Below, one piece after another: positions 554 to 53,529 of a stretch of 64,000 nt of DNA (position 1 is its first letter; each line of letters starts with the position of its first letter). Source of the DNA: an uncultured beta proteobacterium (GTDB taxonomy: Bacteria; Pseudomonadota; Gammaproteobacteria; Burkholderiales; Burkholderiaceae_C); contig CAVUEP010000013.1 in NCBI GenBank assembly GCA_963740395.1, forward strand, positions 7,290 to 71,289, read 5' to 3'. The notes under the pieces were generated by a model. It was not told the DNA's origin. It saw nothing but the letters and a program-made list of their open reading frames with translations, and did no database searches. Made by a program: the position numbers and the translations under genes.

Positions 554-1459
554 CTAGCGCTCGGTCACGCCCAGCTTGTCGAGCAAGCCGTTGAGCTCAT
601 CGAGCGAGCCGAACGAGACGGCGATTTCGCCCTGCTCGCCGCGCTGGGTCTTGCGCAGCACGCGGATCTCGACCGACGCGGTCAGGCGGTCGGCCAGCGC
701 CTCTTCCAGGCGCACGATGTCGCGCGACTTGTTCTGCTTGATGCGCATCAGCGGCGACTGCCGGCCGCTGCTGGCGCCGTTCAGGCGCGCCACGAGCTTT
801 TCGGTCTCGCGCACCGAGAGCTTCTTGCCCGCGACTTCGTTGGCCGACAGGATCTGCTGCGCCGCCTCCAGTCCCAGCAAGGCGCGCGCATGCCCCATCT
901 CGAGGTCGCCGGCGAGCAGCATCTGCTGCACCGGCGCGGCCAGGTTCAGCAGCCGCAGCAGGTTGCTGACCGCGCTGCGCGAGCGCCCGACCGCCTGCGC
1001 GGCCTGCTCGTGGGTCTGCTTGAATTCGTCGATCAAGCGCTGCAGTCCCTGCGCTTCCTCGATCGGATTCAGGTCTTCGCGCTGGATGTTCTCGATCAGC
1101 GCCATCACCGCCGCGGCCTCGTCGGGAACCTCGCGCACCAGCACCGGCACCTCGGCGTGTCCGGCCAGCTTGGCTGCCCGGACACGCCGCTCACCGGCAA
1201 TGATCTCGTAGCGGTTGGCGCCGACCGGTCGCACAAGAATCGGCTGCATCACGCCCTGGCTCTTGATGCTCTCGGCCAGCTCGTAGAGCGAGCCCTCGTC
1301 CATGCGCGTGCGTGGCTGGTACTTGCCGGGCTGCAACTGACTGAGCCTGAGGCTGCTGGGCGCGCCTGCGTCGCGCGGCGTGGCGGGCGCGTCGCTGACC
1401 TTGGGGCCGAGCAATGCTTCGAGGCCCATACCGAGGCCCTTGGGTTTCTTGGTGACCAT
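554..1459 (-). CDS. parB: Chromosome partitioning protein ParB
   Basis: 301-aa ORF with the N-terminal KGLGMGLEALLG motif. It has the ParB-box region GVMQPILVRP..YEIIAGERRVRAAKLAG and the HTH segment HEQAAQAVGRSRSAVSNLLRLL. A parA gene lies in the same neighbourhood. Confidence 0.9.
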   Translation of the reverse strand: MVTKKPKGLGMGLEALLGPKVSDAPATPRDAGAPSSLRLSQLQPGKYQPRTRMDEGSLYELAESIKSQGVMQPILVRPVGANRYEIIAGERRVRAAKLAGHAEVPVLVREVPDEAAAVMALIENIQREDLNPIEEAQGLQRLIDEFKQTHEQAAQAVGRSRSAVSNLLRLLNLAAPVQQMLLAGDLEMGHARALLGLEAAQQILSANEVAGKKLSVRETEKLVARLNGASSGRQSPLMRIKQNKSRDIVRLEEALADRLTASVEIRVLRKTQRGEQGEIAVSFGSLDELNGLLDKLGVTER

Positions 1460-1478
1460 GGGGCGCGATTGTCCGTGA

Positions 1479-2057
1479 TCAGCGGGCGGGCCCGGCTGGC
1501 GCGTCTGAGCGTAACGCGTTGCCGGGCATCAGACCCTCTAGCAAGGCATGCCCTGCCGGCCAGTCATCCAGTCCAGCCTCGGCATTGATGTGGCCGCAGC
1601 GCCCGATGCACACCTGCCGCGCGCCCCAGTCGCGCACCAGGCGCGCGATGGGTTCGACCGCCCCGAAGGGATCGTCCTCGCTCGTGACGGCAATCGCCGC
1701 AAAGGGCAGCGGCTGGCGCACGACCGGCCGCCAGGGGCGCAGATTCGGCGGCATGTCCTCCCGCTCGAGGTCCGGCGGCGCCACCAGCAGCGCCCCCCTG
1801 ACGCGTGCGACCTGCTTCGAATGCGCCGCCCAGGCCGCCACCAGGTGGCAGCCCAGGCTGTGCGCCACCAGCAGCGCGGGCTCGTCGCCATCGAGCAGCA
1901 CCTCCTCCAGCCGCGCCATCCAGTCGCCGCGCTTGGGCCAGAGCCAGTCGCTCTGCACGACCCGGGTGTAGCCGTGGTGGCGCTCCCAGCGGCTCTGCCA
2001 ATGCCCGGCATCGGAGTCGAGCCAGCCGGGCAGCAGCAGCACGCGACAGGGGCTCAT
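1479..2057 (-). CDS. Alpha/beta serine hydrolase, YdeN/RBBP9-like
   Basis: 192-aa ORF. It shows [20 protein letters not shown], the nucleophile elbow AHSLGC, and a C-terminal GHIN motif, as in the small Ser_hydrolase family. Confidence 0.55.
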
Positions 2058-2107
2058 CGGGGTTGCCTTATCCTAGGGTCCGCAGTTGTTGCCATTTTGG
2101 AGCCGAC

Positions 2108-3052
2108 ATGAAGAAGCACACCGTATTCGTCGACGGTCAGGAGGGCACGACCGGTCTGCGCATCCACGAGTACCTGGCCGCGCGCAGCGACATCGAGGTG
2201 CTGAAGATCGACGCCGACAAGCGCAAGGACGCGGCCGAGCGCGCGCGCCTGCTCAATGCGGCCGACGTCGGCTTCCTGTGCCTGCCCGACGCGGCCGCCC
2301 GCGAGGCCGTCGCGCTGGTGACGAACCCCGACACCTGCCTGATCGACGCCAGCACTGCGCACCGCACCAAGCCGGGCTGGGTCTTCGGCCTGCCCGAACT
2401 CGCCTCCGGGCAGCGCGACGCGCTGCGCTCGGGCAAGCGCATCGCCAACCCCGGCTGCCACGCGACGGCCTTCATCCTGTTGCTGCGCCCGCTGATCGAT
2501 GCCGGCATGGTGCCGACCGAGATGGCGCTGTCGGCAACGTCGATCACGGGCTACTCGGGTGGCGGCAAGAAGATGATCGAGCAGTACCAGGCCGGCGGCG
2601 ACAAGAAGCTCGAGTCGCCGCGGCCGTACGGCCTGCAGCTCGGGCACAAGCACATCCCGGAAATGATGGCCCACACGGGCCTGACGACCAAGCCGGTGTT
2701 CATGCCCATCGTCGGCAACTTCTACAAGGGGCTGTCGGTCAGCGTGCCACTGCACCTGGGCCAGCTGGCCCCGGGCATCGACGCGGCAGACCTGCAAAAG
2801 GCCTTCGAGGAGCGCTACGCCAAGGAGCGCTTCATCCGCGTCAAGCCGCTGTCGGACGCCGCCACGCTCGAAGCCGGCTTCTTCGACGTGCAGGGCGCCA
2901 ACGACACCAACCGGGTCGACCTCTTCATCTTCGCCGACGACCAGCAGGCGATCCTGATGGCGCGTGTGGACAACCTCGGCAAGGGCGCCAGCGGCGCGGC
3001 GGTGCAGTGCATGAACCTGCACCTGGGCTGCGACGAGGGGCAGGGGCTCTAG
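2108..3052 (+). CDS. argC: N-acetyl-gamma-glutamyl-phosphate reductase (short type)
   Basis: An internal ATG of the 415-aa track ORF (aa 102) gives [23 protein letters not shown]. The catalytic region [10 protein letters not shown] and the C-terminal [17 protein letters not shown] are present. The upstream extension is Ala/Pro/Arg-rich high-GC read-through. Confidence 0.85.
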
Positions 3053-3093
3053 GGCCCGTTAGCGCCGGCCGGCGCGCGTTGCCGCGCCGCGTC

Positions 3094-3861
3094 TCACTGC
3101 GGGTGCCACTCGAAACAACGCTCGCCGAGCGTGAACACCGCCACCCCCGAGGCCTGGCTCGGCAAGCGAAAGAGCAACTCACCGTCGGGGGCGACGACAC
3201 AGCTGCCCCCACCTTCGACGCTCTCTTCCGGCCGATTGAGTGCGTTGGGCCAGTTGGTTTGCACGACATGCGCCCGGGTCGCGACTGCGAGCCGCTGGAT
3301 GTCGCGCACATACTCGGGTGGATCGGTCCTCGGCGTGTCGGGATCCTGGCGCAGCGCACCCGGTACGAAGATCAGGTCGACGGCCTGCGCTTCGAGTTGG
3401 CCACTTACCAAGTCGAGGTCGCCAACTTCCCGGCAGATGACGGCGGAGCAGCGCAGCCCGTGCAAGATGCCGACCGGCCGGGCGGACCCGCGGGCAAAGA
3501 AGGTCGCCTCCGCTGCGGTCAGACCCTGCTTGGCGATGACGGCGCAAGTACTACCCCGTTCGTCGATCAGCAGATGCGAGTTGTACTTGGCGCCGTCATC
3601 GTCGAAGGTCGGCGCGCCCACCGCAATGCCCAGCGAGAGCTCGGCGCAGTGGGCCTGGAGCTCCTGAACTGCGGGCAGGACCCGCTCGGGGACGGCTTCC
3701 ACCCCGATCTTCTTGTGAAAACCCGTGACGGCCAGTTCCGAGAAGCCGCAAAGACGCGCCTCGCGCGTGCGCGCCAGCGACATCGCGCGGCGGATTGCAG
3801 CCACGTTCTCCGGCGTCGTCCAGTGCATCGCGATTTGAGCGATGGCCACGCGGACCGTCAC
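3094..3861 (-). CDS. Carbon-nitrogen hydrolase (nitrilase superfamily) protein
   Basis: This is the C-terminal 255 aa of the composite 645-aa track ORF, starting VTVRVAIAQIAMHWT. It shows FSELAVTG and the catalytic-Cys region GLRCSAVICRE. The GTG start overlaps the upstream stop as GTGA. Confidence 0.7.
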   Translation of the reverse strand: MTVRVAIAQIAMHWTTPENVAAIRRAMSLARTREARLCGFSELAVTGFHKKIGVEAVPERVLPAVQELQAHCAELSLGIAVGAPTFDDDGAKYNSHLLIDERGSTCAVIAKQGLTAAEATFFARGSARPVGILHGLRCSAVICREVGDLDLVSGQLEAQAVDLIFVPGALRQDPDTPRTDPPEYVRDIQRLAVATRAHVVQTNWPNALNRPEESVEGGGSCVVAPDGELLFRLPSQASGVAVFTLGERCFEWHPQ

Positions 3862-4674
3862 GGTGGCGTGCGTGCCTGTCTTGACACGGGCGCCGTGCGG
3901 TAGTGGTAGGCGTAGCCGTCGCTGAAACCCAACTGGCGATAGAGGGCGCGCGCGGCATGGTTGTCGCCCTCGACCTGCAGGTAGGCGCTGCGCGCGCCTT
4001 CGGCCCGCGCCTGCAGCAGCAGCCGGGTGCACAGGCGGCGGCCCAGGCCCGCGCCGCGTGATGTCGGTGCCGTGAACACGTCGTAGAGCCCGACCAGATC
4101 CGCCTCGCGCGCGAACCTGGCCGCAGGCGAGCAAGGCACCATCGGACTCGCGGCGGATCGCCAGCGCCTGGAACGGCACGGGCGACAGCTCGAGACGCTG
4201 CGCATGGGCCTGGCGCTGCGCCAGCGGCGAACCGCGCATCTGGCCGACGGCCTGGGCAAAGGCGCTGTGGCCCAGCGATTGCCAGACCAGGTCGGATGGC
4301 AGCGGTTCGTCGGCCAGCGCATCGAGCGTCGCGCGCAGCATCACGCGCGTGTCGTCGAGGCGCGGCCACTGCAGCGCATGGAGTTGCTGGTCGAGGTCAG
4401 TCGGCTGGCTGAAGGGCGTGATGCGCACCACCATCGGTAGTTGCGCCTCGGCAAACACCGCCTGCGCCTGCGCCAGCTTGTCCACCAGGGGCAAGCGCCC
4501 CGGCGCAACCGCGTTGACGCAGCGCGCGCGCTTGGCCTTGCCGGGCGAGAAGCGGATCAGCCAGCCGTCGAGCCAGCGTTGTTGCGGTGGCGCACTGGCG
4601 TTGAGGCCGGCGTCCTCGGCGCGTGACAGCAGCAGCGGGTCGAAGGCGGCAGCGGCAGGTGGGTTGCGGGTCAC
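3858..4674 (-). pseudogene. GNAT family N-acetyltransferase interrupted by a +1 frameshift near 4116
   Basis: The N-terminal part (WLDGWLIRFSPGKAKRARCVNAV ... ALLACGQ) lies in the frame of track ORF 3094..5031. The C-terminal acetyl-CoA part (FAREADLVGLYDVFTAPTSRGAGLGRRL ... ARALYRQLGF) lies in the frame of ORF 3858..4322. Total length is 817 nt, which is 3n+1. The GTG start overlaps the parA stop as GTGA. Confidence 0.65.
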
Positions 4675-5444
4675 GCCAGGACCTTGACGCGATCGACCAT
4701 CTCGCGCGCGAACTCGACGTAGGCCACCGCCCCCTTGGACGTCGGGTCGAAGGTCACGCCGGCCTGGCCGTAGCTCGGCGCCTCGGCCAGGCGCACGTTG
4801 CGCGGGATCACGGCCTTGAACACCTTGTCGCCGAAGTGCGCCTCGAGCTGCGAGCTGACCTGCTGCTGCAAGGTGATGCGCGGGTCGAACATCACGCGCA
4901 GCAGGCCGATGATCTGCAGGTCGGGGTTGAGGTTGGCATGCACCTGCTTGATGGTGTTGACCAGGTCCGACAGCCCCTCGAGCGCGAAGTACTCGCACTG
5001 CATCGGCACGATCACGCCCTGTGCGCTGCACAACCCGTTGAGGGTGAGCAGGCTCAGGCTGGGCGGGCAGTCGATGAGGACGAAGTCATACGCGTCGCCC
5101 GCGTCGGCCAGCGCATCGCGTAGGCGCCGGTCGCGCCGTTCCAGGCCGACCAGCTCGACCTCGGCGCCCGAGAGTTCGCGGTTCGCGCCGAGCACGTCGT
5201 AGCCGCCCTTCTCGCTGGCCTGTCGCGCCTCGGCAATGCTGGCCGAACCGAGCAGCACGTCATAGGTGCTGAGCGCAAGCTGGCGCTTGTCGATGCCCGA
5301 GCCCATCGTCGCGTTGCCCTGCGGGTCGAGGTCGACCACCAGCACGCGCTGGCCGACGCGGGCCAGCCCGGCGGCGAGGTTGACCGTGGTGGTGGTCTTG
5401 CCGACCCCGCCCTTTTGGTTGGCGATGCAGAAGATGCGCGTCAT
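4671..5444 (-). CDS. parA: Chromosome partitioning ATPase ParA (Soj-like)
   Basis: The start is MTRIFCIANQKGGVGKTTTTVNLAAGLA, with the deviant Walker A. I chose the ATG 12 codons inside the track ORF. Confidence 0.9.
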   Translation of the reverse strand: MTRIFCIANQKGGVGKTTTTVNLAAGLARVGQRVLVVDLDPQGNATMGSGIDKRQLALSTYDVLLGSASIAEARQASEKGGYDVLGANRELSGAEVELVGLERRDRRLRDALADAGDAYDFVLIDCPPSLSLLTLNGLCSAQGVIVPMQCEYFALEGLSDLVNTIKQVHANLNPDLQIIGLLRVMFDPRITLQQQVSSQLEAHFGDKVFKAVIPRNVRLAEAPSYGQAGVTFDPTSKGAVAYVEFAREMVDRVKVLA

Positions 5445-5536
5445 GTCCGTCCCGAATGCCGCCCCACGGGTGAACCGCACGCCGCGGAGCCCACGAGCGC
5501 AGCGAGCTTTGGGGGCTCCATGGGCTCAGTTTCGCA

Positions 5537-45144: not shown

Positions 45145-47307
45145 TCAGACGCGCCCGCCGCTCGTCGGCACCGAGCGCAGGTCCTGGGCCACGCGCCCTT
45201 CGCCGAGCACGATCACGCGCGACGCGCTGGCGATCGTCTCGGGCCGGTGCGCGACGATCACGCGCGTCAGCGAAAGCTGCCGCACCTGCTGATTGACGAT
45301 GCGCTCACGGTCGACGTCGAGCGCGCTCGTCGCCTCATCGAGCAGCAGGATGCGGGGGCGCTTGTACAGGGCGCGCGCCAACAGCAGCCGTTGCTTCTGG
45401 CCGCCCGAGAGGCTGGCGCCCATGTCGCCGACCAGCGTGTGGTAACCCATCGGCATGGCCTCGATCTCGTCATGCACCGCGGCCATCTGAGCACATTCCG
45501 TGATCCATTCGCTGTCGGGCGCATCATCGAAGAAGCAGATGTTCTCGGCCACGGAACCGGCCAGCAGCGCGTCCTCCTGCATCACCGTGCCGACCATCGC
45601 GCGCCAGCGCGCCAGCCCGAGTTGGCGCAGCGGCACGCCGCCCACGCGAAACTCACCGGTGTCCGGCGCGTGAATGCCCAGCATCAATTTCAGGAGCGTC
45701 GTCTTGCCGCAGCCCGAGGGGCCGACGATGGCCACCGACTCGCCCGGCTCGATCGTGAAATTGATGCCCTTCAGCACCTCGGGCTCGCCGTCGGCATAGC
45801 GAAAGCTCACGCCGCTGACTTCGATGCGCGGCGGCGCCAGCGCCTCGGCGGCCAAGTCGCCCCCCTGCCGCGGCAGCCCCTCGTCCTCGGGCGCAGCCAG
45901 CACGATGTCGGCAAGCCGCTCGCCCTGCAGGCGCAGCATGCGCAACTCGACCGCCTTGTCGATCAAGGCGCTGATGCGCTGCGCAAACTGCTCCTTGAAC
46001 GCGATGAACGCGAACAGCATGCCGACCGACAACTGCTGATCCATCACCAGCAACGCCCCCAGCCAGACCACCGCAATGCGCTCGACGCCGAACAGCAGCC
46101 GGTGCAGAACGGAGAACATCAACTCGAGCTTGCGCGTGGCCAGGTCGGCATTCATGGTGTCGACGACACGGTTCATGAAGCGCGCCTGGCGATCGGCTTG
46201 GCGGTTGAACAGCTTGATCGACTGCACACCGCGCAGCGATTCGAGAAAGTGGCTCGACTGCCGAGCCTCGTGCACCAGCGCCTCCTCGGTGGCCTCGCGC
46301 AGCGGCCTGAAGAAAGCCCAGCGCAGGGCGGCATAAGCCGCCACCGCCGCCATCACCACCGCCGCCAACGCCACGCTGTAGATCAGCATCATCGCCAGCG
46401 TGACGACGACCAGCAGGCCATCGAGCACGGCTTCGATGAAGTGCGTGGTCAATGTCTTCTGGATCTGCTGTACGGTCGCGAAGCGAGACCAGACGTCGCC
46501 GGTGTGCCGCTTCTCGAACCAGGCCATCGGCAGGCGCAGCAGGTGCGCAAACACGTTCGACAGCCACTGCAGGTTGAGTGTGGCCGACAGATGCAGAACC
46601 GACCAGGACCGGATCGCCGCGGCGCCGACCTGCAGCAAGACCAGAAGACCGAAACCCAGCACCAACGTCAACAGCAGGTCGCGGTCGGCGCTGACGAGCA
46701 CCCCGTCGACGACCCACTGCAGGAAGAACGGGCTCAACAGAACGAAGGCCTCGAGGCCCGCCGCGACCAGGAAGATCTGCGCCAGCGAGCGCTTGAGGCC
46801 GCGCACCGGCCCGAGCAGTTGCTTGAGCGTGACCGTCTGCCGCTCGGTCTTGGCCTTGAAGTCCGCTGCCGGCGTCAGCTCGAGCGCAATGCCGGTGAAG
46901 TGGCGCGACAGCTCGGTCAGCTTCATGCGCCGCACGCCACGCGCGGGGTCGTGCAGCGTGACTCGGTTGCCCCGCACTTCGGTCAGTACGACGAAGTGAT
47001 TCAGGTCCCAATGCAGGACGCACGGCAAGGCCAGTTGGGCCAACTGCTCGGGTTCGGCGCGCAATGCGCGAGGGTTGAAATTCAACTGTCCGGCCATGCG
47101 CACCAGGTCGGCCATCGTGGCGCCCTTGAGCGACAACGAAAAGCGCCGGCGCAGCGTCGGCAGGTCGGTGCGGTAGCCATGCGCCGCCGACACCATCGCG
47201 AGACACGCCAGCGTGCACTCGGCCGCCTCGGTCTGCAGGATCATCGGCGCGCTGTGCCCGCCGAGCCAGCCAGCCAGCGACAGATCCAGCGAATCCGGGC
47301 TCGCCAT
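45145..47307 (-). CDS. Peptidase C39 domain-containing ABC exporter (bacteriocin/peptide processing and export, CvaB/RaxB-like)
   Basis: The N-terminal C39 domain shows ILQTEAAECTLACLAMV (catalytic Cys) and HWDLNHFVVL (His). A six-TM domain follows. Walker A is GPSGCGKTT, the signature is LSGGQKQRLLLARA, and Walker B is ILLLDEATSALD. The ATG overlaps the HlyD stop as TGATG. Confidence 0.85.
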   Translation of the reverse strand: MASPDSLDLSLAGWLGGHSAPMILQTEAAECTLACLAMVSAAHGYRTDLPTLRRRFSLSLKGATMADLVRMAGQLNFNPRALRAEPEQLAQLALPCVLHWDLNHFVVLTEVRGNRVTLHDPARGVRRMKLTELSRHFTGIALELTPAADFKAKTERQTVTLKQLLGPVRGLKRSLAQIFLVAAGLEAFVLLSPFFLQWVVDGVLVSADRDLLLTLVLGFGLLVLLQVGAAAIRSWSVLHLSATLNLQWLSNVFAHLLRLPMAWFEKRHTGDVWSRFATVQQIQKTLTTHFIEAVLDGLLVVVTLAMMLIYSVALAAVVMAAVAAYAALRWAFFRPLREATEEALVHEARQSSHFLESLRGVQSIKLFNRQADRQARFMNRVVDTMNADLATRKLELMFSVLHRLLFGVERIAVVWLGALLVMDQQLSVGMLFAFIAFKEQFAQRISALIDKAVELRMLRLQGERLADIVLAAPEDEGLPRQGGDLAAEALAPPRIEVSGVSFRYADGEPEVLKGINFTIEPGESVAIVGPSGCGKTTLLKLMLGIHAPDTGEFRVGGVPLRQLGLARWRAMVGTVMQEDALLAGSVAENICFFDDAPDSEWITECAQMAAVHDEIEAMPMGYHTLVGDMGASLSGGQKQRLLLARALYKRPRILLLDEATSALDVDRERIVNQQVRQLSLTRVIVAHRPETIASASRVIVLGEGRVAQDLRSVPTSGGRV

Positions 47308-48554
47308 CACACGCGAGCGGCCATGCCCAGCAGGGGCTCGATCAACCACTCGTAGAGCTTGCGCCGCTCCACGGGCACGTCGGCGTCGAGCTGCATGCCG
47401 GGCGCCAGCGGTTGCAAGACCCCGTAGGCCGACACCTGCTGGCGCTCCAGCGCCACCGTGATGCGGTACATCGGCTCGCGCGCCGACCCCGCCCAGGGCT
47501 GCCCAGCCAGTTCGGCCGGCTGCAGCGGCGCCAGCGACACCTGCTCGATGCGCCCATGCTGATGGCCGAATTTCTGGTAGGCGAAGGCGTGGTAACGCAG
47601 CAACACCGACTGCTCCGCGCGCAGGAAGCCCACGGCACTCGACGGCGCGTACAGGTGCGCCTGCAGCGCCGAGCCCGCGGGCACCAAGCTGGCCAGCGTG
47701 GAGGCCGCAGCGACCGTTTGCCCTGCAGAGACCAGCACCGCGCTGACGACGCCGTCCTGTGGCGCGCGCACCACCAAACTGCGGCGCGCTTCGCTCTCTG
47801 CCTTCATTTGCGCCAGTTCGGCCCGTTCGCGCTCGATCTCGCCCTGCCTCGCGCCGGACTGCAGGGGCAGGTCGCGAAGCTGCGCTTGCGCAGCGGCGAT
47901 CTCGCGCTCGTGCGCGCTGCGCTGACGCAGCTGCGCCTGGCGTTGCGTGCGCAGCCCCAGCAACTCCTCGGTCTTGGCCTGGACTTGGGCCGACGAGACG
48001 AAGTTGTCGCTGCGCAGCGACTCGAGCCGCGCCAACGCCTGTTCGGCCAGCGCGATCCGCTGCGTCAACAGGGCCGACTCGGCATCGAGGCTACCGCGCT
48101 CCTGCTGCAGGTCGGCACGACGGCGCACCAATGCGGCCTCCTGGCTGCTGAGCAAGGCCTGCTGTTGCTGCGCCGCAGCGCGCAAGCTCGACTCGCGGTC
48201 CGCCAAGGTGCGTTGCACCGCGGCCTGCGTGTCGCCGCCGGCGGCGGCGCGGTCGAGCGACAGCACGAAGAGCACGTCGCCGGCACGCACGCTGGCGCCT
48301 TCGGCCACGCGCCGCTCCAGCACCAGTGCATCCTGGGGCGGCGACAGACGGATCACGCCGCTGTCGGGCACCAGCACGCCACTGACGCGCACCTTGCGCG
48401 TGTACTCGCCGAGCGCCAGGAAGGCGCCCACGGCCAGCACCGCAACGACCACCGCGGTGGTCAGCACGGTCAGCGAGAGCGGGCGAACCAGCTGAATCTC
48501 ACCGACCCACGAGGTCTGCTGGGCGTCCAGCGCCTCGCGGCGGAAGATGTTCAC
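47307..48554 (-). CDS. HlyD-family membrane fusion / secretion adaptor protein (CvaA-like)
   Basis: It starts MNIFRREALDAQQTSWVGEIQLVRPLSLTVLT, followed by a single TM segment, a long coiled-coil and a beta-barrel C-terminus. The GTG start overlaps the small-ORF stop as GTGA. Confidence 0.8.
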   Translation of the reverse strand: MNIFRREALDAQQTSWVGEIQLVRPLSLTVLTTAVVVAVLAVGAFLALGEYTRKVRVSGVLVPDSGVIRLSPPQDALVLERRVAEGASVRAGDVLFVLSLDRAAAGGDTQAAVQRTLADRESSLRAAAQQQQALLSSQEAALVRRRADLQQERGSLDAESALLTQRIALAEQALARLESLRSDNFVSSAQVQAKTEELLGLRTQRQAQLRQRSAHEREIAAAQAQLRDLPLQSGARQGEIERERAELAQMKAESEARRSLVVRAPQDGVVSAVLVSAGQTVAAASTLASLVPAGSALQAHLYAPSSAVGFLRAEQSVLLRYHAFAYQKFGHQHGRIEQVSLAPLQPAELAGQPWAGSAREPMYRITVALERQQVSAYGVLQPLAPGMQLDADVPVERRKLYEWLIEPLLGMAARV

Positions 48555-48712
48555 CAGCCCTTGGTTGGCAGCGACGTGCCGCCGCTGACTTGGCGCAATG
48601 CCGGTGCGTCGAGCTCAATCGGCTGGCGCACTGGCTGAGCTGGCGACTCGGCGCGAGTCTTGCCGACGATGCGTTGAACCCAAAGCCCGACAGTCTTTTG
48701 TACCTTGTTCAT
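48551..48712 (-). CDS. 53-aa double-glycine-leader precursor peptide (predicted 8-aa mature product TSLPTKGW)
   Basis: It is absent from the ORF track because it is under 60 aa. I translated it base by base: MNKVQKTVGLWVQRIVGKTRAESPAQPVRQPIELDAPALRQVSGGTSLPTKGW*. GGAG lies 5 nt upstream of the ATG. The stop is coupled to the HlyD start as GTGA. The leader has hydrophobic residues at -4, -7 and -12 relative to the GG. Confidence 0.6.
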   Translation of the reverse strand: MNKVQKTVGLWVQRIVGKTRAESPAQPVRQPIELDAPALRQVSGGTSLPTKGW

Positions 48713-48781
48713 ATGCGCTCCTGATTGGCTGGCGTCGTGGAATCGACACCGGATTCCAGCAGCCTTCGGGCGCGCACGTAA

Positions 48782-48797
48782 CTGTCAACCTTTACAG
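48782..48797. promoter_or_regulatory. CTGT-N8-ACAG inverted repeat (lux-box-like or LexA-box-like) upstream of the peptide gene
   Basis: ctgtcaacctttacag lies 5 nt after the luxR-type stop and 70 nt upstream of the peptide ATG. On the minus strand it contains TTGACA. Its 12-nt core recurs at 49546..49557. Confidence 0.4.
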
Positions 48798-48802
48798 GGT
48801 CC

Positions 48803-49516
48803 TCAATGAAGGAGCCCGAGCCTCAGGGCCTTTACCACGGCAACATGTTTCGAATTGCAGTTCAGCTTCTGCATGGCGTTCTGCAGGTGGAACACCGCCG
48901 TGCGGTCGCCGATGCCCAGGATCGTGCTGATCGCGCTCGTCGTCTTGCCGTCCATGGTCCAGCGCAGGACTTCGAGCTCGCGCGGCGTCAAGGCCGGCAG
49001 CTCGGGGCGGGCACCCTCGGACACCAGCACCCGCATGGCCGTGTCCTGGGCGTGCACGGCAAATAGCTGCAAGTCCGCAACGATCCGTGTCAGTTCGGCT
49101 CCGTCGGACGGCAGCGCCTGATCTCGCTCAACGCCCAAGAGAAAGTGTCGCCCCTCGGGTAGATGCAGCGCCATCGCGATGCCGTTCCGGTACCCGAACT
49201 GGGCCTGACGCTCCCACAACTCCGCGGAGTTGGCGTTCACGTAATTCCGTTGTCCCCAGATGATGGGCACCGTGTGGCGCTTGCAATGCTGTGCGATCGG
49301 ATCGCGCTTGCTGATGCTCAGGTCGTCGAATGTCTCAACGTACGCAGCAGGTGCGTTATGTATCGAAACGAACTCAGGCTCACGGCCCAGGCGGTCGACC
49401 GCAACCGTCGACGCGACCCTGTCGAAACCCAGGCGCTGGGCAAAGCGAATCACCACCGACCTGAACTGGTCCTGGTTCTGCGCTTCCAACACGGATTGGT
49501 AGTCGCCTTGCAGCAT
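48803..49516 (-). CDS. LuxR-family regulator with an N-terminal autoinducer-binding-type domain and a C-terminal GerE HTH (LuxR solo; no luxI in the window)
   Basis: The HTH reads LTPRELEVLRWTMDGKTTSAISTILGIGDRTAVFHLQNAMQKL. The ligand-domain block PAAYVETFDDLSISKRDPIAQHCKRHTVPIIW has exactly the TraR spacing for positions 57/61/70/71/85, which read Y, F, D, P, W. Confidence 0.8.
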   Translation of the reverse strand: MLQGDYQSVLEAQNQDQFRSVVIRFAQRLGFDRVASTVAVDRLGREPEFVSIHNAPAAYVETFDDLSISKRDPIAQHCKRHTVPIIWGQRNYVNANSAELWERQAQFGYRNGIAMALHLPEGRHFLLGVERDQALPSDGAELTRIVADLQLFAVHAQDTAMRVLVSEGARPELPALTPRELEVLRWTMDGKTTSAISTILGIGDRTAVFHLQNAMQKLNCNSKHVAVVKALRLGLLH

Positions 49517-49541
49517 TACTTCGCAGTTTCGCCTGGGTTAC

Positions 49542-49557
49542 CCGGCAACCTTTACAG
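49542..49557. promoter_or_regulatory. Second copy of the CAACCTTTACAG half-motif, between the luxR-type gene and the divergent 124-aa gene
   Basis: ccggcaacctttacag shares 12 of 12 nt with 48786..48797, but the left arm is CCGG rather than CTGT. It lies 26 nt upstream of the luxR-type ATG. Confidence 0.3.
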
Positions 49558-49637
49558 CTATCGGCGGGCCTGATCTTTGTCCACACTCTTTGCCATCGGA
49601 GCCACTCGGTTCCGTTTTCCAACGGCAAGGAGTGCAC

Positions 49638-50012
49638 ATGAATTCATCCTGGACTGTTCGCGCGTGGCCGGCCCTATTGTGGCAGGCCGGTAACCCCTCG
49701 CAACTGCAATTCGATCACGTTGACACGCAGGTCTTCCCGTCCGACCGGGACGATGCACCGGTCTGCGGCCAAACTGTCTGGGCCGGCCCGCTGGACGACG
49801 GCCAGGTTGGCGTGGCCTGGGATTGGGTGCAGGTGTCCCAAGGCGTGGTCGCGATGGCCGACCCGATGTGCGTCGTCAGCAATCTGCGCCTGATCGGCCC
49901 GCAGGGTGAGGTGCTGACGGCCTGGGAGTCCGCGCGGCACCTGAACCAGATCGTCTACGGCCTGCCCTGGCAAGGCGAGGTGCAACGCGCCCTGCACCAC
50001 CTGAACGACTGA
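49638..50012 (+). CDS. Hypothetical 124-aa cytoplasmic protein, divergent from the LuxR-type gene
   Basis: The ATG is preceded by AAGGAG and gives MNSSWTVRAWPALLWQAG. The protein is Trp-rich, with no signal peptide and no recognised domain. Confidence 0.4.
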   Translation: MNSSWTVRAWPALLWQAGNPSQLQFDHVDTQVFPSDRDDAPVCGQTVWAGPLDDGQVGVAWDWVQVSQGVVAMADPMCVVSNLRLIGPQGEVLTAWESARHLNQIVYGLPWQGEVQRALHHLND

Positions 50013-50051: not shown

Positions 50052-51218
50052 TCACTTCAATGCGGCTGTGCGCAGCTGGCGTGACACGAAGGTCAGGCCG
50101 GCCGCGACGACCAGCCCGCACACCAGCAGCGGCACCGCCATGTCAGGCACGCCGATGGCCTCGCCCTTGAGTACACGGTTCATCAGCGTCACCTGGCCAA
50201 GCGCCGGCACGGCCAGATGCCAGGGCGCCTCGCCGCTCTGGTTGAACACGCTCACCAAGGGCAGCAGTGACACGCCCAGAATGACCACGGTGTTGTTGGC
50301 CTGCGCCTCCTTGAAGGTTCTACAGCGAATCGCAATGGCCATCATCAGCGCAGCCAATGCGGCCGCCAGCGGGGCCAGCAGCGCCAGCATCAGGCCCACC
50401 TCGCGCAGTCCGAACTGGAACATCGCGGCCAGCGTCTCGCTACGCAACAGGTACTGCGCGGGCAGGAACGAGAAGCAGCTGAGCAAGGCGATCAGCATGC
50501 CCACCGACGAGACGGCGCCCCATTTGCCGAGCACCAGCGACAGCCGGGACGCCGGGTTCATCAGCAGCGGCTCGAGCGAACCGCGTTCGCGCTCGCCGGC
50601 CGTGGTGTCCAGGGCCGCATTCAAGGCCCCGTACAGCACCGCCATCAGGACGAAGAAGGGCAAGATGCTGGTCAGGCGCGCGGCGCGCGACTGCGGATTG
50701 GCCAGGTCGCGGTCCTGCACGTCCAGCACCTCCAGTGTCGCGGGGGCCACCCCGCGCAGTGCCAACCGCAGCACCGCTTGCTCGTTGGAGAAGCCACGCA
50801 GCAGCCGCGTGAGCCGGCCGACGCTGCCGCTGGCGCGTTGGTTGGCGCTGCTGGAGACAATCTCGACCAGCGGCGCCTCGCCACGCGCCAACTCCGCTTC
50901 GAAGTCCTGGCCGACGACGAGCACCGGGTCGCCCAGCGATTGGTTGGTCAGCCGCTGCTCGTAGTCGGCGGGTGCCGCATTGACGCGATAGGTCTGGCGC
51001 AACAGGTAGTTCTGCAAAGTAGGCGCCTGCTCGACGCCCGCGACGAGCACGGTGCGTTCCTCGGCGCGCTTCTCGATGCCGGCAACGAGCGCCGACAACG
51101 CGATCAGCACCAAGGGCCCGATCGCCACCGACGACAGCAGCACCACGACCAGCGTGCGCCGGTCGCGCAGGGCGTCGAGCAGCTCCTTGCGAAAGACGAT
51201 CCACGCGTTCATGACCAT
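50052..51218 (-). CDS. ABC-2 type transporter permease (NatB-like)
   Basis: It starts MVMNAWIVFRKELLDALRDRRTLVVVLL. It has a large extracytoplasmic loop and then five C-terminal TM segments. An alternative ATG at 51212 overlaps the ATPase stop as ATGA. Confidence 0.7.
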   Translation of the reverse strand: MVMNAWIVFRKELLDALRDRRTLVVVLLSSVAIGPLVLIALSALVAGIEKRAEERTVLVAGVEQAPTLQNYLLRQTYRVNAAPADYEQRLTNQSLGDPVLVVGQDFEAELARGEAPLVEIVSSSANQRASGSVGRLTRLLRGFSNEQAVLRLALRGVAPATLEVLDVQDRDLANPQSRAARLTSILPFFVLMAVLYGALNAALDTTAGERERGSLEPLLMNPASRLSLVLGKWGAVSSVGMLIALLSCFSFLPAQYLLRSETLAAMFQFGLREVGLMLALLAPLAAALAALMMAIAIRCRTFKEAQANNTVVILGVSLLPLVSVFNQSGEAPWHLAVPALGQVTLMNRVLKGEAIGVPDMAVPLLVCGLVVAAGLTFVSRQLRTAALK

Positions 51219-52048
51219 GTTTGCTCCCTGGCGCTGCGCGCGGTCCCTCCGAGAGGGACGCCACCTTCCTTGGGACGGCCCTGCGAAAGGTTCGCTCCTG
51301 GGTCGGCATTGAACGCCAGCTTGACGAAGGTCTCTTCGAAGTCTTGTTCGCCACAGGACGCGTTGAGATCGGCGACGCTGCCTTGCGCCACGGTGCGGCC
51401 GTGCGAGACGACGATGACGTGGTCGCACAGGCGCTCCACCTCCTGCATGATGTGGGTCGAGAACACGATGCACTTGCCCTCGACGTCGCGCAGGCGCCGC
51501 AGCGATTCGCGCAGCGCGCGCGTGGCCAGCACATCCAGGCCATTGGTCGGCTCGTCCAGGACGATGTTCGGCGGGTTGTGCACGAGGGCGCGCGCGAGAG
51601 CGGTCTTCATGCGCTCGCCCTGGCTGAAGCCCTCCGTTCGCCGCTCCAGCAGCGGCTGCATGTCCAGCATATGCGCCAGTGCATCGGCACGCTGCGACGC
51701 GGCGACATCACTCATGCCGTGCAAGCGACCGTAGTAGACGATGTTCTCGCGCGCCGTCAGTCGCGCATACAGCCCCCGCGCATCGCTGAGCACGCCCATG
51801 CGCGCAAGCGCAGCCCGCGGCGCGCTGCGCACATCGATGCCGTCCACACGCAACTCGCCCGCATCGGGCGCCAGCAGCGCTGCGAGCAGGCGCAGGGTCG
51901 TGGTCTTGCCGGCCCCATTGGGCCCGAGCAGGCCGGTAATGCGGCCGTCCGCTGCCTGGAAACTCACGCCGTCGACGGCTTGCACCGTGCGCGCCTTCTT
52001 GCCGCGGCCCTGCGAGAAGCGCTTGGCCAAGCGCTGGACTTCGATCAT
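51209..52048 (-). CDS. ABC transporter ATP-binding protein (NatA-like)
   Basis: It starts MIEVQRLAKRF. It shows GPNGAGKTT, FSQGERMKTALARA and NIVLDEPTNGLD. The ATG overlaps the upstream stop as ATGA. Confidence 0.85.
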   Translation of the reverse strand: MIEVQRLAKRFSQGRGKKARTVQAVDGVSFQAADGRITGLLGPNGAGKTTTLRLLAALLAPDAGELRVDGIDVRSAPRAALARMGVLSDARGLYARLTARENIVYYGRLHGMSDVAASQRADALAHMLDMQPLLERRTEGFSQGERMKTALARALVHNPPNIVLDEPTNGLDVLATRALRESLRRLRDVEGKCIVFSTHIMQEVERLCDHVIVVSHGRTVAQGSVADLNASCGEQDFEETFVKLAFNADPGANLSQGRPKEGGVPLGGTARSAREQTWS

Positions 52049-53529
52049 CGTGCGGCTCCGGGCAAGGCAAACATCGGCGGCCTGGGGATGCCGGTCACGC
52101 AACTCGCATCCACCGCGAGCGCCTCCTCGTCGGTCTGCGCATCGACAAAGCGGAACAACACGTCGCGCATGCACCCGATGGCCATCACGCCGTGGCCGGC
52201 ATGGGGCACCACCGTGTGGCGCGCCTTGGCGCCCAGCGCCGTCGCCGTTCGTTCGCCATGCCGAGGCGGCGTCACCGGGTCGATGCCGCCCGACAGCACC
52301 AGGGTGGCCGCGGGCGCCGGCGGCAGCGTGTAGAAGGCCGCCGGCACGTCCCCGCGAGGCCACGGCGCGCAGACCTCGCGGTACAGAGCAAGGAAACTGT
52401 CACCGAAGTCAGCGCCCGGCCGGTCCGTCGATTGCGCGATGCGCGGCATGTCCTCTGCGCAGACGACCGAGAAGTGCATGCCGGCGGCCATGCGCATGCC
52501 GCGTCGCCCGACCAGCGCCTGCGCCAGCGCAGCCAGGCCGTCGAAGCGCCCCTGTGTGGCTTCGCCGATCGCTGCGGGCAGCGCCGAGCTCAATGCCGGT
52601 ACGTACAGCGGGCCGCGAACCAGGCCCAGCAGCATGTCGCGCGTCAGCGTCAGCCGCTCGCTTCGGTGGGTCAGCGGGTGGCGCAGCTCGACCGAGCGCG
52701 GCAATGAGGCCAGCAAGGCCTGCCAGCGTTCGCGCAGCCGCGGCTCGCGCGCCGCGCAGCCGGGGTCTTTGGAGCAGGCGTCGAAGAGTGCATCGAGTGC
52801 GGCCTGGTTGTCGGTCGAGAACGCGGCCGGCAGCACCATGTCGGGCGGGGCCACGCCGTCGATCACGGCGCGCCGCACGCGGTCGGGGAACAGGCGCTGG
52901 TATTCGAGCGCGGCGCGGGTGCCGTACGAGCCACCGACGAGGTTGATACGCGGCGCGCCCAGGGCCGCGCGCACCGCCTCGACATCCTGCATCGCCAGCG
53001 TGGTCGTGAAGAAGCGCAGGTCGCCGTAGGGCAACGCCTTCAACTCGACCAGACAGGCGGCAAGCCGCTCGCGCTGGCGCTCGAGGCTGAACAACTCCGC
53101 CAGCGGCAGCGCGGGGTCGTCGGCATCGCAATGCAGTGGCGCACTGCGTCCGGTACCGCGCTGGTCGATCAGGACGATGTCGCGGCGATTGGCGAATCGC
53201 GACAGCATGGCCGACACGGCAGGCGCGATCTCGATCGCGCTCTGCCCCGGACCGCCGGCGAAGAAGAAGACCGGGTCCGGCTGCTTGTTGCGCGCCAGCG
53301 CGGGCAGCACGGCATAGTGGACCGCGATCTGCGTCGCCTGCGGTCGTGCCGGGTCGAGCGGGCGCTCCACCGTGCCGCAGAGTGCCTGGTGTTCGATGCC
53401 GCGCAGGCGGCAGGGTGTGGGTCCGGCGTCTGTGGCCAACGCCCGGCTTGGCGCACTTGCCGTCGCGCAGGCGAGCGCGAACAGGCACAGGGCGCGGCCG
53501 ATCAGGGAGGGGATTTGCATGGCACGCAT
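52045..53529 (-). CDS. Secreted alpha/beta hydrolase (tripeptidyl aminopeptidase / TAP-like)
   Basis: A signal peptide is present. It shows PVFFFAGGPGQSAI, IVLIDQRGTGRS and the nucleophile motif GGSYGT. The C-terminal region is TAP-like and contains HAGHG. Confidence 0.7.
   Translation of the reverse strand: MRAMQIPSLIGRALCLFALACATASAPSRALATDAGPTPCRLRGIEHQALCGTVERPLDPARPQATQIAVHYAVLPALARNKQPDPVFFFAGGPGQSAIEIAPAVSAMLSRFANRRDIVLIDQRGTGRSAPLHCDADDPALPLAELFSLERQRERLAACLVELKALPYGDLRFFTTTLAMQDVEAVRAALGAPRINLVGGSYGTRAALEYQRLFPDRVRRAVIDGVAPPDMVLPAAFSTDNQAALDALFDACSKDPGCAAREPRLRERWQALLASLPRSVELRHPLTHRSERLTLTRDMLLGLVRGPLYVPALSSALPAAIGEATQGRFDGLAALAQALVGRRGMRMAAGMHFSVVCAEDMPRIAQSTDRPGADFGDSFLALYREVCAPWPRGDVPAAFYTLPPAPAATLVLSGGIDPVTPPRHGERTATALGAKARHTVVPHAGHGVMAIGCMRDVLFRFVDAQTDEEALAVDASCVTGIPRPPMFALPGAAR

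Follow-up and report, generated by a model that had tools for sequence, protein, structure and literature searches.

In a 64,000-nucleotide (nt) stretch of contig CAVUEP010000013.1 from an uncultured Burkholderiales bacterium, here called the window and meaning that stretch in its entirety, five genes form a compact module. They encode a LuxR-family regulator, a divergently transcribed tryptophan-rich protein of 124 residues, a short precursor peptide with a double-glycine (GG) leader, a HlyD-family membrane-fusion protein (MFP), and an ATP-binding cassette (ABC) exporter carrying a C39 peptidase domain (C39-ABC) (Table 1). The genome is metagenome-assembled (MAG), 86% complete and 3.3 Mb in size. 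An earlier reading of the letters alone (the sequence-only reading) had proposed that these five genes lie together between mnmG and an ABC-2 transporter, had guessed the domains Peptidase_C39, ABC_membrane, ABC_tran, HlyD_3, Autoind_bind and GerE, and had linked the precursor, HlyD and exporter genes through overlapping stop and start codons. The list of open reading frames (ORFs) places all five genes and both flanks where they had been claimed, every one of the guessed domains was matched in Pfam, and the overlaps are real: the precursor and HlyD genes share a GTGA (48551-48554) that joins a stop to a start codon, and the HlyD and exporter genes overlap by one base at 47307, or by 43 nt if the exporter is read from a GTG start at 47349. 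By these overlapping coordinates the HlyD gene is translationally coupled both to the precursor and to the ABC gene.

Table 1. Features of the module and of its flanks, numbered from the first nucleotide of the window.
Feature	Position	Strand	Basis or remark
mnmG	43070-45118		Flank beside the exporter side
C39-ABC exporter gene	45145-47349	(-)	Pfam Peptidase_C39, ABC_membrane, ABC_tran
HlyD-family membrane-fusion (periplasmic adaptor) gene	47307-48554	(-)	Pfam HlyD_3, Biotin_lipoyl_2
Precursor gene, 53 aa	48551-48712	(-)	ORF list
Core TSLPTKGW and stop codon	48551-48577	(-)	Sequence
Double-glycine leader, 45 aa, ending ELDAPALRQVSGG	48578-48712	(-)	Sequence
cep-box-type lux box CCCTGTAAAGGTTGACAGTT	48780-48799	(-)	Sequence, conservation
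LuxR-family regulator gene	48803-49516	(-)	Pfam Autoind_bind, GerE
Degenerate second box AGCTGTAAAGGTTGCCGGGT	49540-49559	(-)	Sequence; divergent rsaM-luxR promoter region
RsaM homologue, 124 aa, 8 Trp	49638-50012	(+), divergent from luxR	AF2 model, Foldseek
ABC-2 pair	50052-52048	(-)	Flank beside the RsaM-homologue side
ABC-2 permease	50052-51218	(-)	Pfam
ABC-2 ATPase	51209-52048	(-)	Pfam
Secreted S33/TAP-like alpha/beta hydrolase	52045-53529	(-)	Pfam

The exporter has the build of a peptidase-containing ABC transporter (PCAT, or AMS, type), with a C39 domain, a transmembrane domain and a nucleotide-binding domain (Pfam: Peptidase_C39, 7e-34; ABC_membrane, 5e-38; ABC_tran, 1.5e-32), an adjoining GG-leader substrate and an MFP partner, and in NCBIfam it is matched best by the NHLP-type bacteriocin exporter. 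Translation probably begins at the ATG at 47307, for a protein of 720 aa; the longest ORF runs from the GTG. The best PDB match of the N-terminal C39 domain is the double-glycine protease LahT (6MPZ; E 1.8e-21), and the domain also matches ComA (8HF4; E 4e-10); the catalytic Cys (QTEAAEC) and His (NHFVVL) are both kept in the alignment to LahT (6MPZ) and PCAT1 (4RY2). The MFP is matched by HlyD_3 (2.8e-13) and by the NCBIfam model type_I_hlyD (1e-35). Exporter orthologues in related loci are 65-92% identical.

Relatives of the module were collected by a scan of one genome per species, which turned up relatives in 294 genomes and from which 80 loci were fetched; the presence of a gene was counted by tblastn, and only in loci with enough flank on the relevant side. 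These loci come from Rubrivivax, Methylibium, Piscinibacter, Rhizobacter, Aquincola, Roseateles, Ideonella, Aquabacterium and many other Burkholderiales, isolates included, and LuxR homologues with 70-91% identity are plentiful in metagenomes, where their contigs carry the identical five-gene set. The genes for the 124-residue (RsaM-like, see below) protein, LuxR, HlyD and C39-ABC are syntenic in 58-59 of the 68 loci with enough downstream sequence. This arrangement is far beyond chance, and the co-conservation of luxR with the exporter, on which the sequence-only reading had staked its proposal, is therefore upheld. An Opp-type importer, considered as a part of the module since it adjoins some loci, was set aside, being absent at the window and from the conserved neighbours.

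The module is also common, and most of its carriers lack a LuxI. In a sample of 301 genomes spread evenly over the window's family (201 genera), an orthologue is found in 66 genomes and 45 genera, that is, in about a fifth of the sampled genomes. The sequence-only reading had seen no luxI in the window; we found no LuxI-family match (PF00765) either there or in the rest of the 86%-complete MAG, nor in 58 of the 66 module-bearing genomes, and in the remaining 8 the LuxI gene is never adjacent to the module. Three of five isolate genomes likewise gave no LuxI match. LuxI occurs in only 26 of the 301 family genomes, and since the search did find it in other genomes, we regard the search as reliable and the regulator as a genuine solo in about 88% of its carriers.

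The precursor gene, whose ATG lies 7 nt downstream of an AGGAG Shine-Dalgarno sequence, encodes 53 residues ending in LRQVSGG/TSLPTKGW, and the product matches no family in Pfam or NCBIfam. The sequence-only reading had singled out a GG-leader peptide with the core TSLPTKGW; leader and core are both there, but what is conserved is a six-residue unit rather than the 8-mer, namely the C-terminal hexapeptide LPTKGW, of the pattern xPxxxW. The invariant positions in an alignment of 14 close precursors are L39, G44 and G45 in the leader and P49 and W53 in the core. Behind luxR there is a small ORF wherever the sequence could be read that far (78/78 loci). The leaders vary, but none of the loci with C39-ABC is without a GG or GA leader, and the unit is found in 72 of 77 complete precursors. 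It occurs in 40 variants among 67 loci (LPKGGW, LPRGGW, APRNGW, APKHGW, GPNSTW and SPKGTW, for example), and it diversifies between species as pherotypes do. About 21 precursors hold from two to five copies of the unit, identical inside each precursor but separated by spacers that have nothing in common even between sister loci (L040 against L041; L039 against L049). This pattern, known also from multi-copy pheromone precursors, is the mark of selection for a short peptide that is released; it is the unit, and not the spacers, that is under selection.

A further element, absent from the sequence-only reading, lies between luxR and the precursor gene. It begins 4 nt past the luxR stop codon, is centred about 77 bp upstream of the precursor ATG, and has the CTG-N10-CAG palindrome of a lux box (CCCTGTAAAGGTTGACAGTT), which makes it a putative LuxR-binding site. 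Of its 20 positions, 18 are the same as in the cep box that mutagenesis has defined 72 bp upstream of cepI (PMC1766932). A box stands in the equivalent place, after luxR and before the precursor, in 76-80 of the 80 loci, and about 42 of the 80 have a second box, a full palindrome scoring at least 10 bits, in the rsaM-luxR intergenic region; at the window this second box has retained its left half only. A matrix built from the boxes of the fetched loci, when scanned over about 1 Mb of these loci, matches almost nowhere else. Neither a sigma-70 consensus promoter nor a terminator was found in a scan of the interval between luxR and the precursor; the absence of a sigma-70-like site is compatible with an activator-dependent promoter, but does not count as evidence for one.

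The best other match to the box in the MAG, identical at 19 of 20 positions, lies about 74 bp upstream of a HlyB-like/HlyD/RTX-lipase secretion operon (locus L092; G000, contig C17:3347-11486). The products of this operon are HlyD, an HlyB-like ABC protein that has a C39-like domain, a small GerE/RTX protein and an RTX protein of 956 aa that bears a Lipase_3 domain; its ABC gene is read as two overlapping ORFs, which may reflect a frameshift or an assembly error. The operon probably belongs to the same LuxR regulon, and it is plausible that the RTX lipase is a quorum-controlled exoenzyme.

The divergent gene on the other side of luxR had been described in the sequence-only reading as a Trp-rich unknown; the description stands, but the protein need no longer be called an unknown, given that its modelled structure identifies it as an RsaM homologue. 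The AlphaFold2 (AF2) model (predicted local distance difference test score, pLDDT, 85.8) has as its best Foldseek match the RsaM protein BCAM1869 (4O2H; E 3.4e-6, probability 1.00, template-modelling (TM) scores 0.72/0.66), and Foldseek returned no other significant match for this model, the next having an E-value of 0.15. In keeping with this, 4O2H is the sole PDB match of the family profile (E 0.034), the WDW motif of the family aligns with the WDW of 4O2H, and DUF4902 (PF16245) is the only real Pfam match, and the only one with E below 0.09, in each of the 17 homologues (E 2.1e-5 at best), one member adding a match at the chance level of E 0.095; the window protein itself scores 16.3-16.8 bits against DUF4902, under the curated cut-off of 25. 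Six tryptophans are invariant in the homologue alignment (W5, W10, W48, W61, W63 and W111), and the gene is present, divergent from luxR, in all 57 of the 57 loci with enough upstream flank. RsaM is a negative modulator whose gene lies between luxI and luxR in N-acyl homoserine lactone (AHL) circuits of the CepIR, TofIR, PfsIR and AbaIR type; it binds neither DNA nor AHLs, and has no known ligand or target (PMC10710839). A topology with a divergent rsaM and a luxR solo has been listed as 'type 6' in Pelomonas, Kinneretia, Thauera, Albitalea and Xenophilus, with no mention of a peptide or an exporter (PMC10710839).

Loss of the exporter separates the parts of the module. In a clade of seven loci HlyD and C39-ABC are missing and the GG leader is gone too, leaving an ORF of 10-22 aa that ends in LPRNGW or LPRAGW (for instance TTLLPRNGW and MQTMLPRAGW), while the box, LuxR and RsaM are retained. 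Because the leader was lost with the exporter, the precursor is to be seen as the substrate of the exporter; and because the unit stays with LuxR and RsaM after the exporter has gone, its function is tied to these two proteins and not to the exporter. The same association is found much further away: LuxR orthologues with 42-49% identity, in unrelated neighbourhoods, have kept the divergent RsaM homologue and a small unit-bearing ORF downstream, which ends in SPRNGW in L096 and in IPRIGPW in L095, and which in L098 has FPVGGW near its start, the end of that ORF being unread. In one exporter-less locus (L047:6065-6585) two tandem leaderless minigenes each end in LLPRNGW, so that here the unit is duplicated at the level of the gene rather than by repeats within a precursor.

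The regulator is the sole Autoind_bind gene in the MAG. It has the two domains of the family (PF03472 Autoind_bind, 3.4e-22, 79 bits against a cut-off of 23; PF00196 GerE, 1.4e-16) and aligns over its full length to the structures of RhlR, LasR and QscR. The six-residue signature of AHL receptors (W57, Y61, D70, P71, W85 and G113 in TraR numbering) is incomplete in the aligned homologues. D70, P71, W85 and G113 (LasR D73, P74, W88 and G113) have invariant equivalents; the equivalent of W57 (LasR W60) is Y or F, with W in 5 of 81; that of Y61 (LasR Y64) is highly variable (F, Y, I, M, L, S, A or H); and that of LasR Y56 (TraR Y53) is A or T. Outside these substituted contacts, conservation of the ligand domain is high, a pattern that suits a changed, diversifying ligand without proving one. 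A complex prediction for the ligand domain (residues 1-170) with the precursor, run without controls, scored 0.00, which counts neither for nor against binding. Co-evolution of unit positions 3 (K against R) and 1 (L against other residues) with LuxR positions 59, 60 and 63 came down to only 2-4 independent pairs on supported branches, which gives no power; inspection by eye suggests that Y or W at LuxR 59 tends to accompany R-type units, and F more often K-type units, a tendency that is phylogenetically confounded and serves as a lead only.

Variants of the regulator itself were also seen. Two loci, L093 (G149:C21:404000-420000) and L094 (G103:C143:181000-197000), hold tandem arrays of five LuxR paralogues, 44-59% identical to the window LuxR and placed between the RsaM and precursor genes and HlyD/C39-ABC, and L094 has two exporter sets; such arrays could serve multi-pherotype sensing or eavesdropping. 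Three other relatives (P0129, P0144 and P0237) are 388-401 aa long, with the LuxR part C-terminal and about 170 extra N-terminal residues, and may be RsaM-LuxR fusions, the 'type 8' of the RsaM review.

The loci display directly their gene content, the coupling of the genes, a conserved operator, selection on the unit and the joint loss of leader and exporter. On this footing we propose that LuxR drives an autoinduction circuit whose chassis is of the AHL type, but whose LuxI and AHL have given way to a ribosomal peptide with its exporter. We put the probability of this reading at roughly one half. LuxR would bind the cep-type box 3' of its own gene and activate precursor-hlyD-C39-ABC. As is usual in these families, the C39 domain would cut the 53-aa precursor after the double glycine and ABC/HlyD would export the product through an outer-membrane channel encoded elsewhere. 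The product TSLPTKGW would probably be trimmed to LPTKGW, since aminopeptidases are expected to stall at X-Pro, and cleavage after the Trp of multi-unit precursors would free several copies. The peptide would then re-enter the cell and most likely be sensed by the remodelled autoinducer-binding domain of LuxR, closing a positive feedback; this is the weakest step. By homology with CepIR/TofIR-type systems, the RsaM homologue would damp the loop, and in this genome the regulon probably includes the RTX-lipase type I secretion operon, in front of which the near-identical box stands.

Several points weigh against this proposal. That LuxR itself senses the peptide is something that we infer: a peptide of 6-8 residues is far larger than an AHL, the canonical LuxR pocket is buried, and with the equivalents of D70, W85 and G113 kept, an AHL or another small ligand is possible. 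The conserved module includes no importer, and the leaderless variants without an adjacent exporter suit an intracellular role equally well; unlinked modifying enzymes are possible too. Five precursors lack the terminal Trp (they have LPRVG or LPRVS). Finally, mnmG lies downstream in 40 of 48 loci, so that most loci share one vertically inherited, origin-proximal neighbourhood, which deprives much of the synteny of weight as independent evidence.

A rival explanation, which we regard as unlikely, is that the peptide is an output. LuxR would then be a class-B-type solo sensing exogenous AHLs or some other small molecule, and the peptide would act on another receptor, organism or surface. This would agree with the invariance of the D70, P71, W85 and G113 equivalents, with the conservative Y or F at W57 (W itself in five loci) and with a module that has no importer, and eavesdropping on foreign AHLs is well established for LuxR solos (PMC10134790). 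Against it, the trio of RsaM, LuxR and peptide persists at 42-49% LuxR identity, and without exporter or leader, which is how a signal-receptor pair such as luxI-luxR behaves, more than a regulator with one of its target genes; the unit diversifies between species in a pherotype-like manner; and a highly variable Y61 equivalent is unusual among AHL receptors.

We consider it improbable, and more so than a role as output, that the peptide is an intracellular co-regulator that binds LuxR or RsaM, for instance by stabilising the one or neutralising the other, with export as a means of removal or as a secondary signalling layer. Such a role is supported by the leaderless ORFs of 10-22 aa, which have survived alongside RsaM, LuxR and the box at loci without an adjoining exporter, and by RsaM being a protein that binds neither DNA nor AHLs and is without a known ligand or target (PMC10710839). 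It accords poorly, however, with the 59 of 68 loci in which a dedicated processing exporter is translationally coupled to the precursor, and the multi-copy precursors suit a released, diffusible product. Moreover, leaderless peptides are able to leave cells via other ABC systems.

The sequence-only reading had left the choice between signalling and a mini-bacteriocin undecided, and here the evidence favours the first. Signalling is preferred because conservation is confined to the hexapeptide, because identical repeats are set among drifting spacers, because the unit is species-specific, and because it is retained without leader or exporter beside LuxR and RsaM. It is very doubtful that the precursor yields a mini-bacteriocin or a RiPP (ribosomally synthesised and post-translationally modified peptide) natural product, made with unlinked modifying enzymes or acting as a toxin, to which the ABC-2 pair would give self-immunity. 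The NHLP-type match of the exporter and the ABC-2 pair and secreted hydrolase that adjoin the module in 39 of 48 loci could be read in this way, and ABC-2 pumps are indeed immunity systems for some bacteriocins. Yet the conserved neighbours are only RsaM, LuxR, HlyD, ABC, the S33 hydrolase, the ABC-2 pair and mnmG, and among them there is no modifying enzyme and no immunity-like small membrane ORF as a RiPP cluster or a bacteriocin locus would have. The conserved element has six residues, without the Cys/Ser/Thr patterns typical of RiPP chemistry, and the 8-aa core stands against the 20 aa or so, or more, and the immunity gene of class II bacteriocins. Leaderless, exporter-less versions are kept, nine loci and L096 have the module without ABC-2 and hydrolase, and no lux box precedes the ABC-2 operon.

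That the palindrome is a LexA (SOS) box and the operon damage-induced, like many colicins and microcins, has next to no chance of being right and was rejected: the window element does fit CTGT-N8-ACAG, the LexA-box core of beta- and gamma-proteobacteria, and the window has a typical LexA-type box at another site (42299-42318), but several orthologous boxes keep CTG-N10-CAG while breaking the ACAG (TTACCAG, TTTCCAG or TTTTCAG), the conserved spacer (AAGAGCTG or AAAGGTTG) contains G+C whereas LexA spacers in this genome are AT-rich, and the element agrees with the cep box at 18 of 20 positions and always stands beside luxR.

Beyond the RsaM homologue lies the operon of the hydrolase and the ABC-2 pair, whose genes are also joined by overlapping stop and start codons (50052-53529). 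It adjoins the module in 39 of the 48 loci with both flanks, is linked to it in a different arrangement in L095, the orthologue with 42% identity, and is not beside it in nine loci and in L096; a scan with the box matrix found no lux box upstream of it. The operon may be accessory, with a part in processing, in export of leaderless forms, in turnover or in immunity, or its presence may be mere synteny. As for the rest of the window, the N-terminal sequences of its ORFs place it near the origin of replication: they point to ParB- and ParA-like ORFs around 554-5480 and to gyrB- and dnaN-like ones at 60223-63907, with rsmG and mnmG in between at 42384-45118. A minus-strand ORF (41336-42274) has a typical LexA-type box (CTGTATAAACATACAG) directly upstream, at 42299-42318, and this box, the ORF and the large ORFs that follow it, among them 36613-38244, have together (36613-42274) a layout that looks like an imuA-imuB-dnaE2 SOS cassette. 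An Rfam scan of the entire 64,000-nt window found no family that reached the threshold.

If LuxR does sense the peptide, the ligand range of LuxR proteins gains peptides, and a large group of "orphan" LuxR solos is explained. The textbook split sets Gram-negative AHL/LuxR circuits against Gram-positive peptides; here a receptor, an RsaM protein and an operator from the AHL world are found with a putative signal and an export system from the world of peptides, in a module widespread in a large Burkholderiales family from freshwater, soil and activated sludge. RsaM is strictly retained in the absence of LuxI and AHL, an argument for LuxR or the promoter, and against the synthase or the signal, as its target. 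We would suggest, with somewhat less confidence than we have in the circuit as such, that this may be the first LuxR receptor with a ribosomal, exported hexapeptide (xPxxxW) as its autoinducer. It would be a proteobacterial peptide quorum sensing that arose by replacement of LuxI in a CepIR/RsaM-type circuit, with species pherotypes, multi-copy precursors and sometimes tandem receptor paralogues, and with RsaM acting on LuxR or its promoter rather than on AHL or LuxI. In agreement with the sequence-only reading, which did not recognise a described system here, a full-text search of the literature, itself of incomplete coverage, returned no description of a LuxR/RsaM locus with a ribosomal peptide and a C39-ABC exporter. 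The hypothesis is directly testable, since the candidate signals are inexpensive synthetic hexapeptides and carriers are in culture (Methylibium sp. Root1272, Aquincola tertiaricarbonis, A. agrisoli, Rubrivivax sp. RP6-9 and Roseateles subflavus).

The proposed circuit shares features with several known systems, and differs from each of them: (i) ComC/ComAB of the streptococci, which makes the competence-stimulating peptide (CSP), also has a GG-leader precursor, a C39-ABC (ComA) with an accessory protein, autoinduction and pherotype diversity. Its receptor, however, is the membrane histidine kinase ComD, it is Gram-positive and has no RsaM, and its mature peptide has about 17 aa, against the 6-8-aa unit found here. 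(ii) RaxX-RaxSTAB of Xanthomonas oryzae combines, likewise in a proteobacterium, a GG-leader peptide with the C39-ABC RaxB and the MFP RaxA. RaxX, about 20 aa long, is sulfated, for which the sulfotransferase RaxST and a Tyr are required, and it has no link to LuxR or RsaM; there is no sulfotransferase among the neighbours of our module and no conserved Tyr in the unit, which sets the module apart from RaxX. (iii) In PatS/PatX-HetC-HetR of the heterocystous cyanobacteria, which are Gram-negative, a short ribosomal peptide with an active C-terminal penta- or hexapeptide and a link to a C39-ABC has a cytoplasmic transcription factor as its target. That peptide inhibits HetR, which is not a LuxR protein, and it is a developmental patterning signal and not an autoinducer, and neither a lux box nor an RsaM is known from this system. 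(iv) PipR and the solos of plant-associated bacteria, OryR, XccR and PsoR, are LuxR homologues with peptide-like ligands and a dependence on ABC import of peptides; genes for a proline iminopeptidase, a peptidase of the S33 family, and for peptide transporters are linked to them (PMC10134790), and an S33/TAP-like hydrolase lies near our module as well. PipR indeed demonstrates that LuxR homologues are able to respond to peptide-like ligands (PMC10134790), but the ligand of these solos is exogenous and plant-derived (HEHEAA for PipR), and they have no self-encoded precursor, C39-ABC or RsaM. (v) The class C solos PluR/PpyS (pyrones) and PauR/DarABC (dialkylresorcinols) also pair a LuxR with a substituted WYDPWG motif with the genes for a non-AHL product; their signals are enzyme-made metabolites, the synthase genes are reportedly not controlled by LuxR, and there is no autoinduction (PMC10134790). 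In our module the candidate signal is gene-encoded, and its promoter bears the lux box. (vi) The circuits of CepI/CepR-RsaM (BCAM1869, Burkholderia cenocepacia), TofI-TofM-TofR, BtaI1-RsaM1-BtaR1, PfsI-RsaM-PfsR and AbaI-AbaM-AbaR have in common with the window a LuxR activator, an RsaM-fold protein, a cep-box-type operator before the gene for signal production, and positive feedback. The sequence-only reading had likened the module to Gram-positive peptide signalling or to RaxX-RaxAB, a comparison that does not hold for the chassis: by its RsaM fold and its cep-box-like operator, the closest relative is the CepIR/RsaM-type AHL circuit, from which the module departs in having no LuxI/AHL synthase, in the replacement of W57 and Y61, and in the precursor, HlyD and C39-ABC that stand behind the box.

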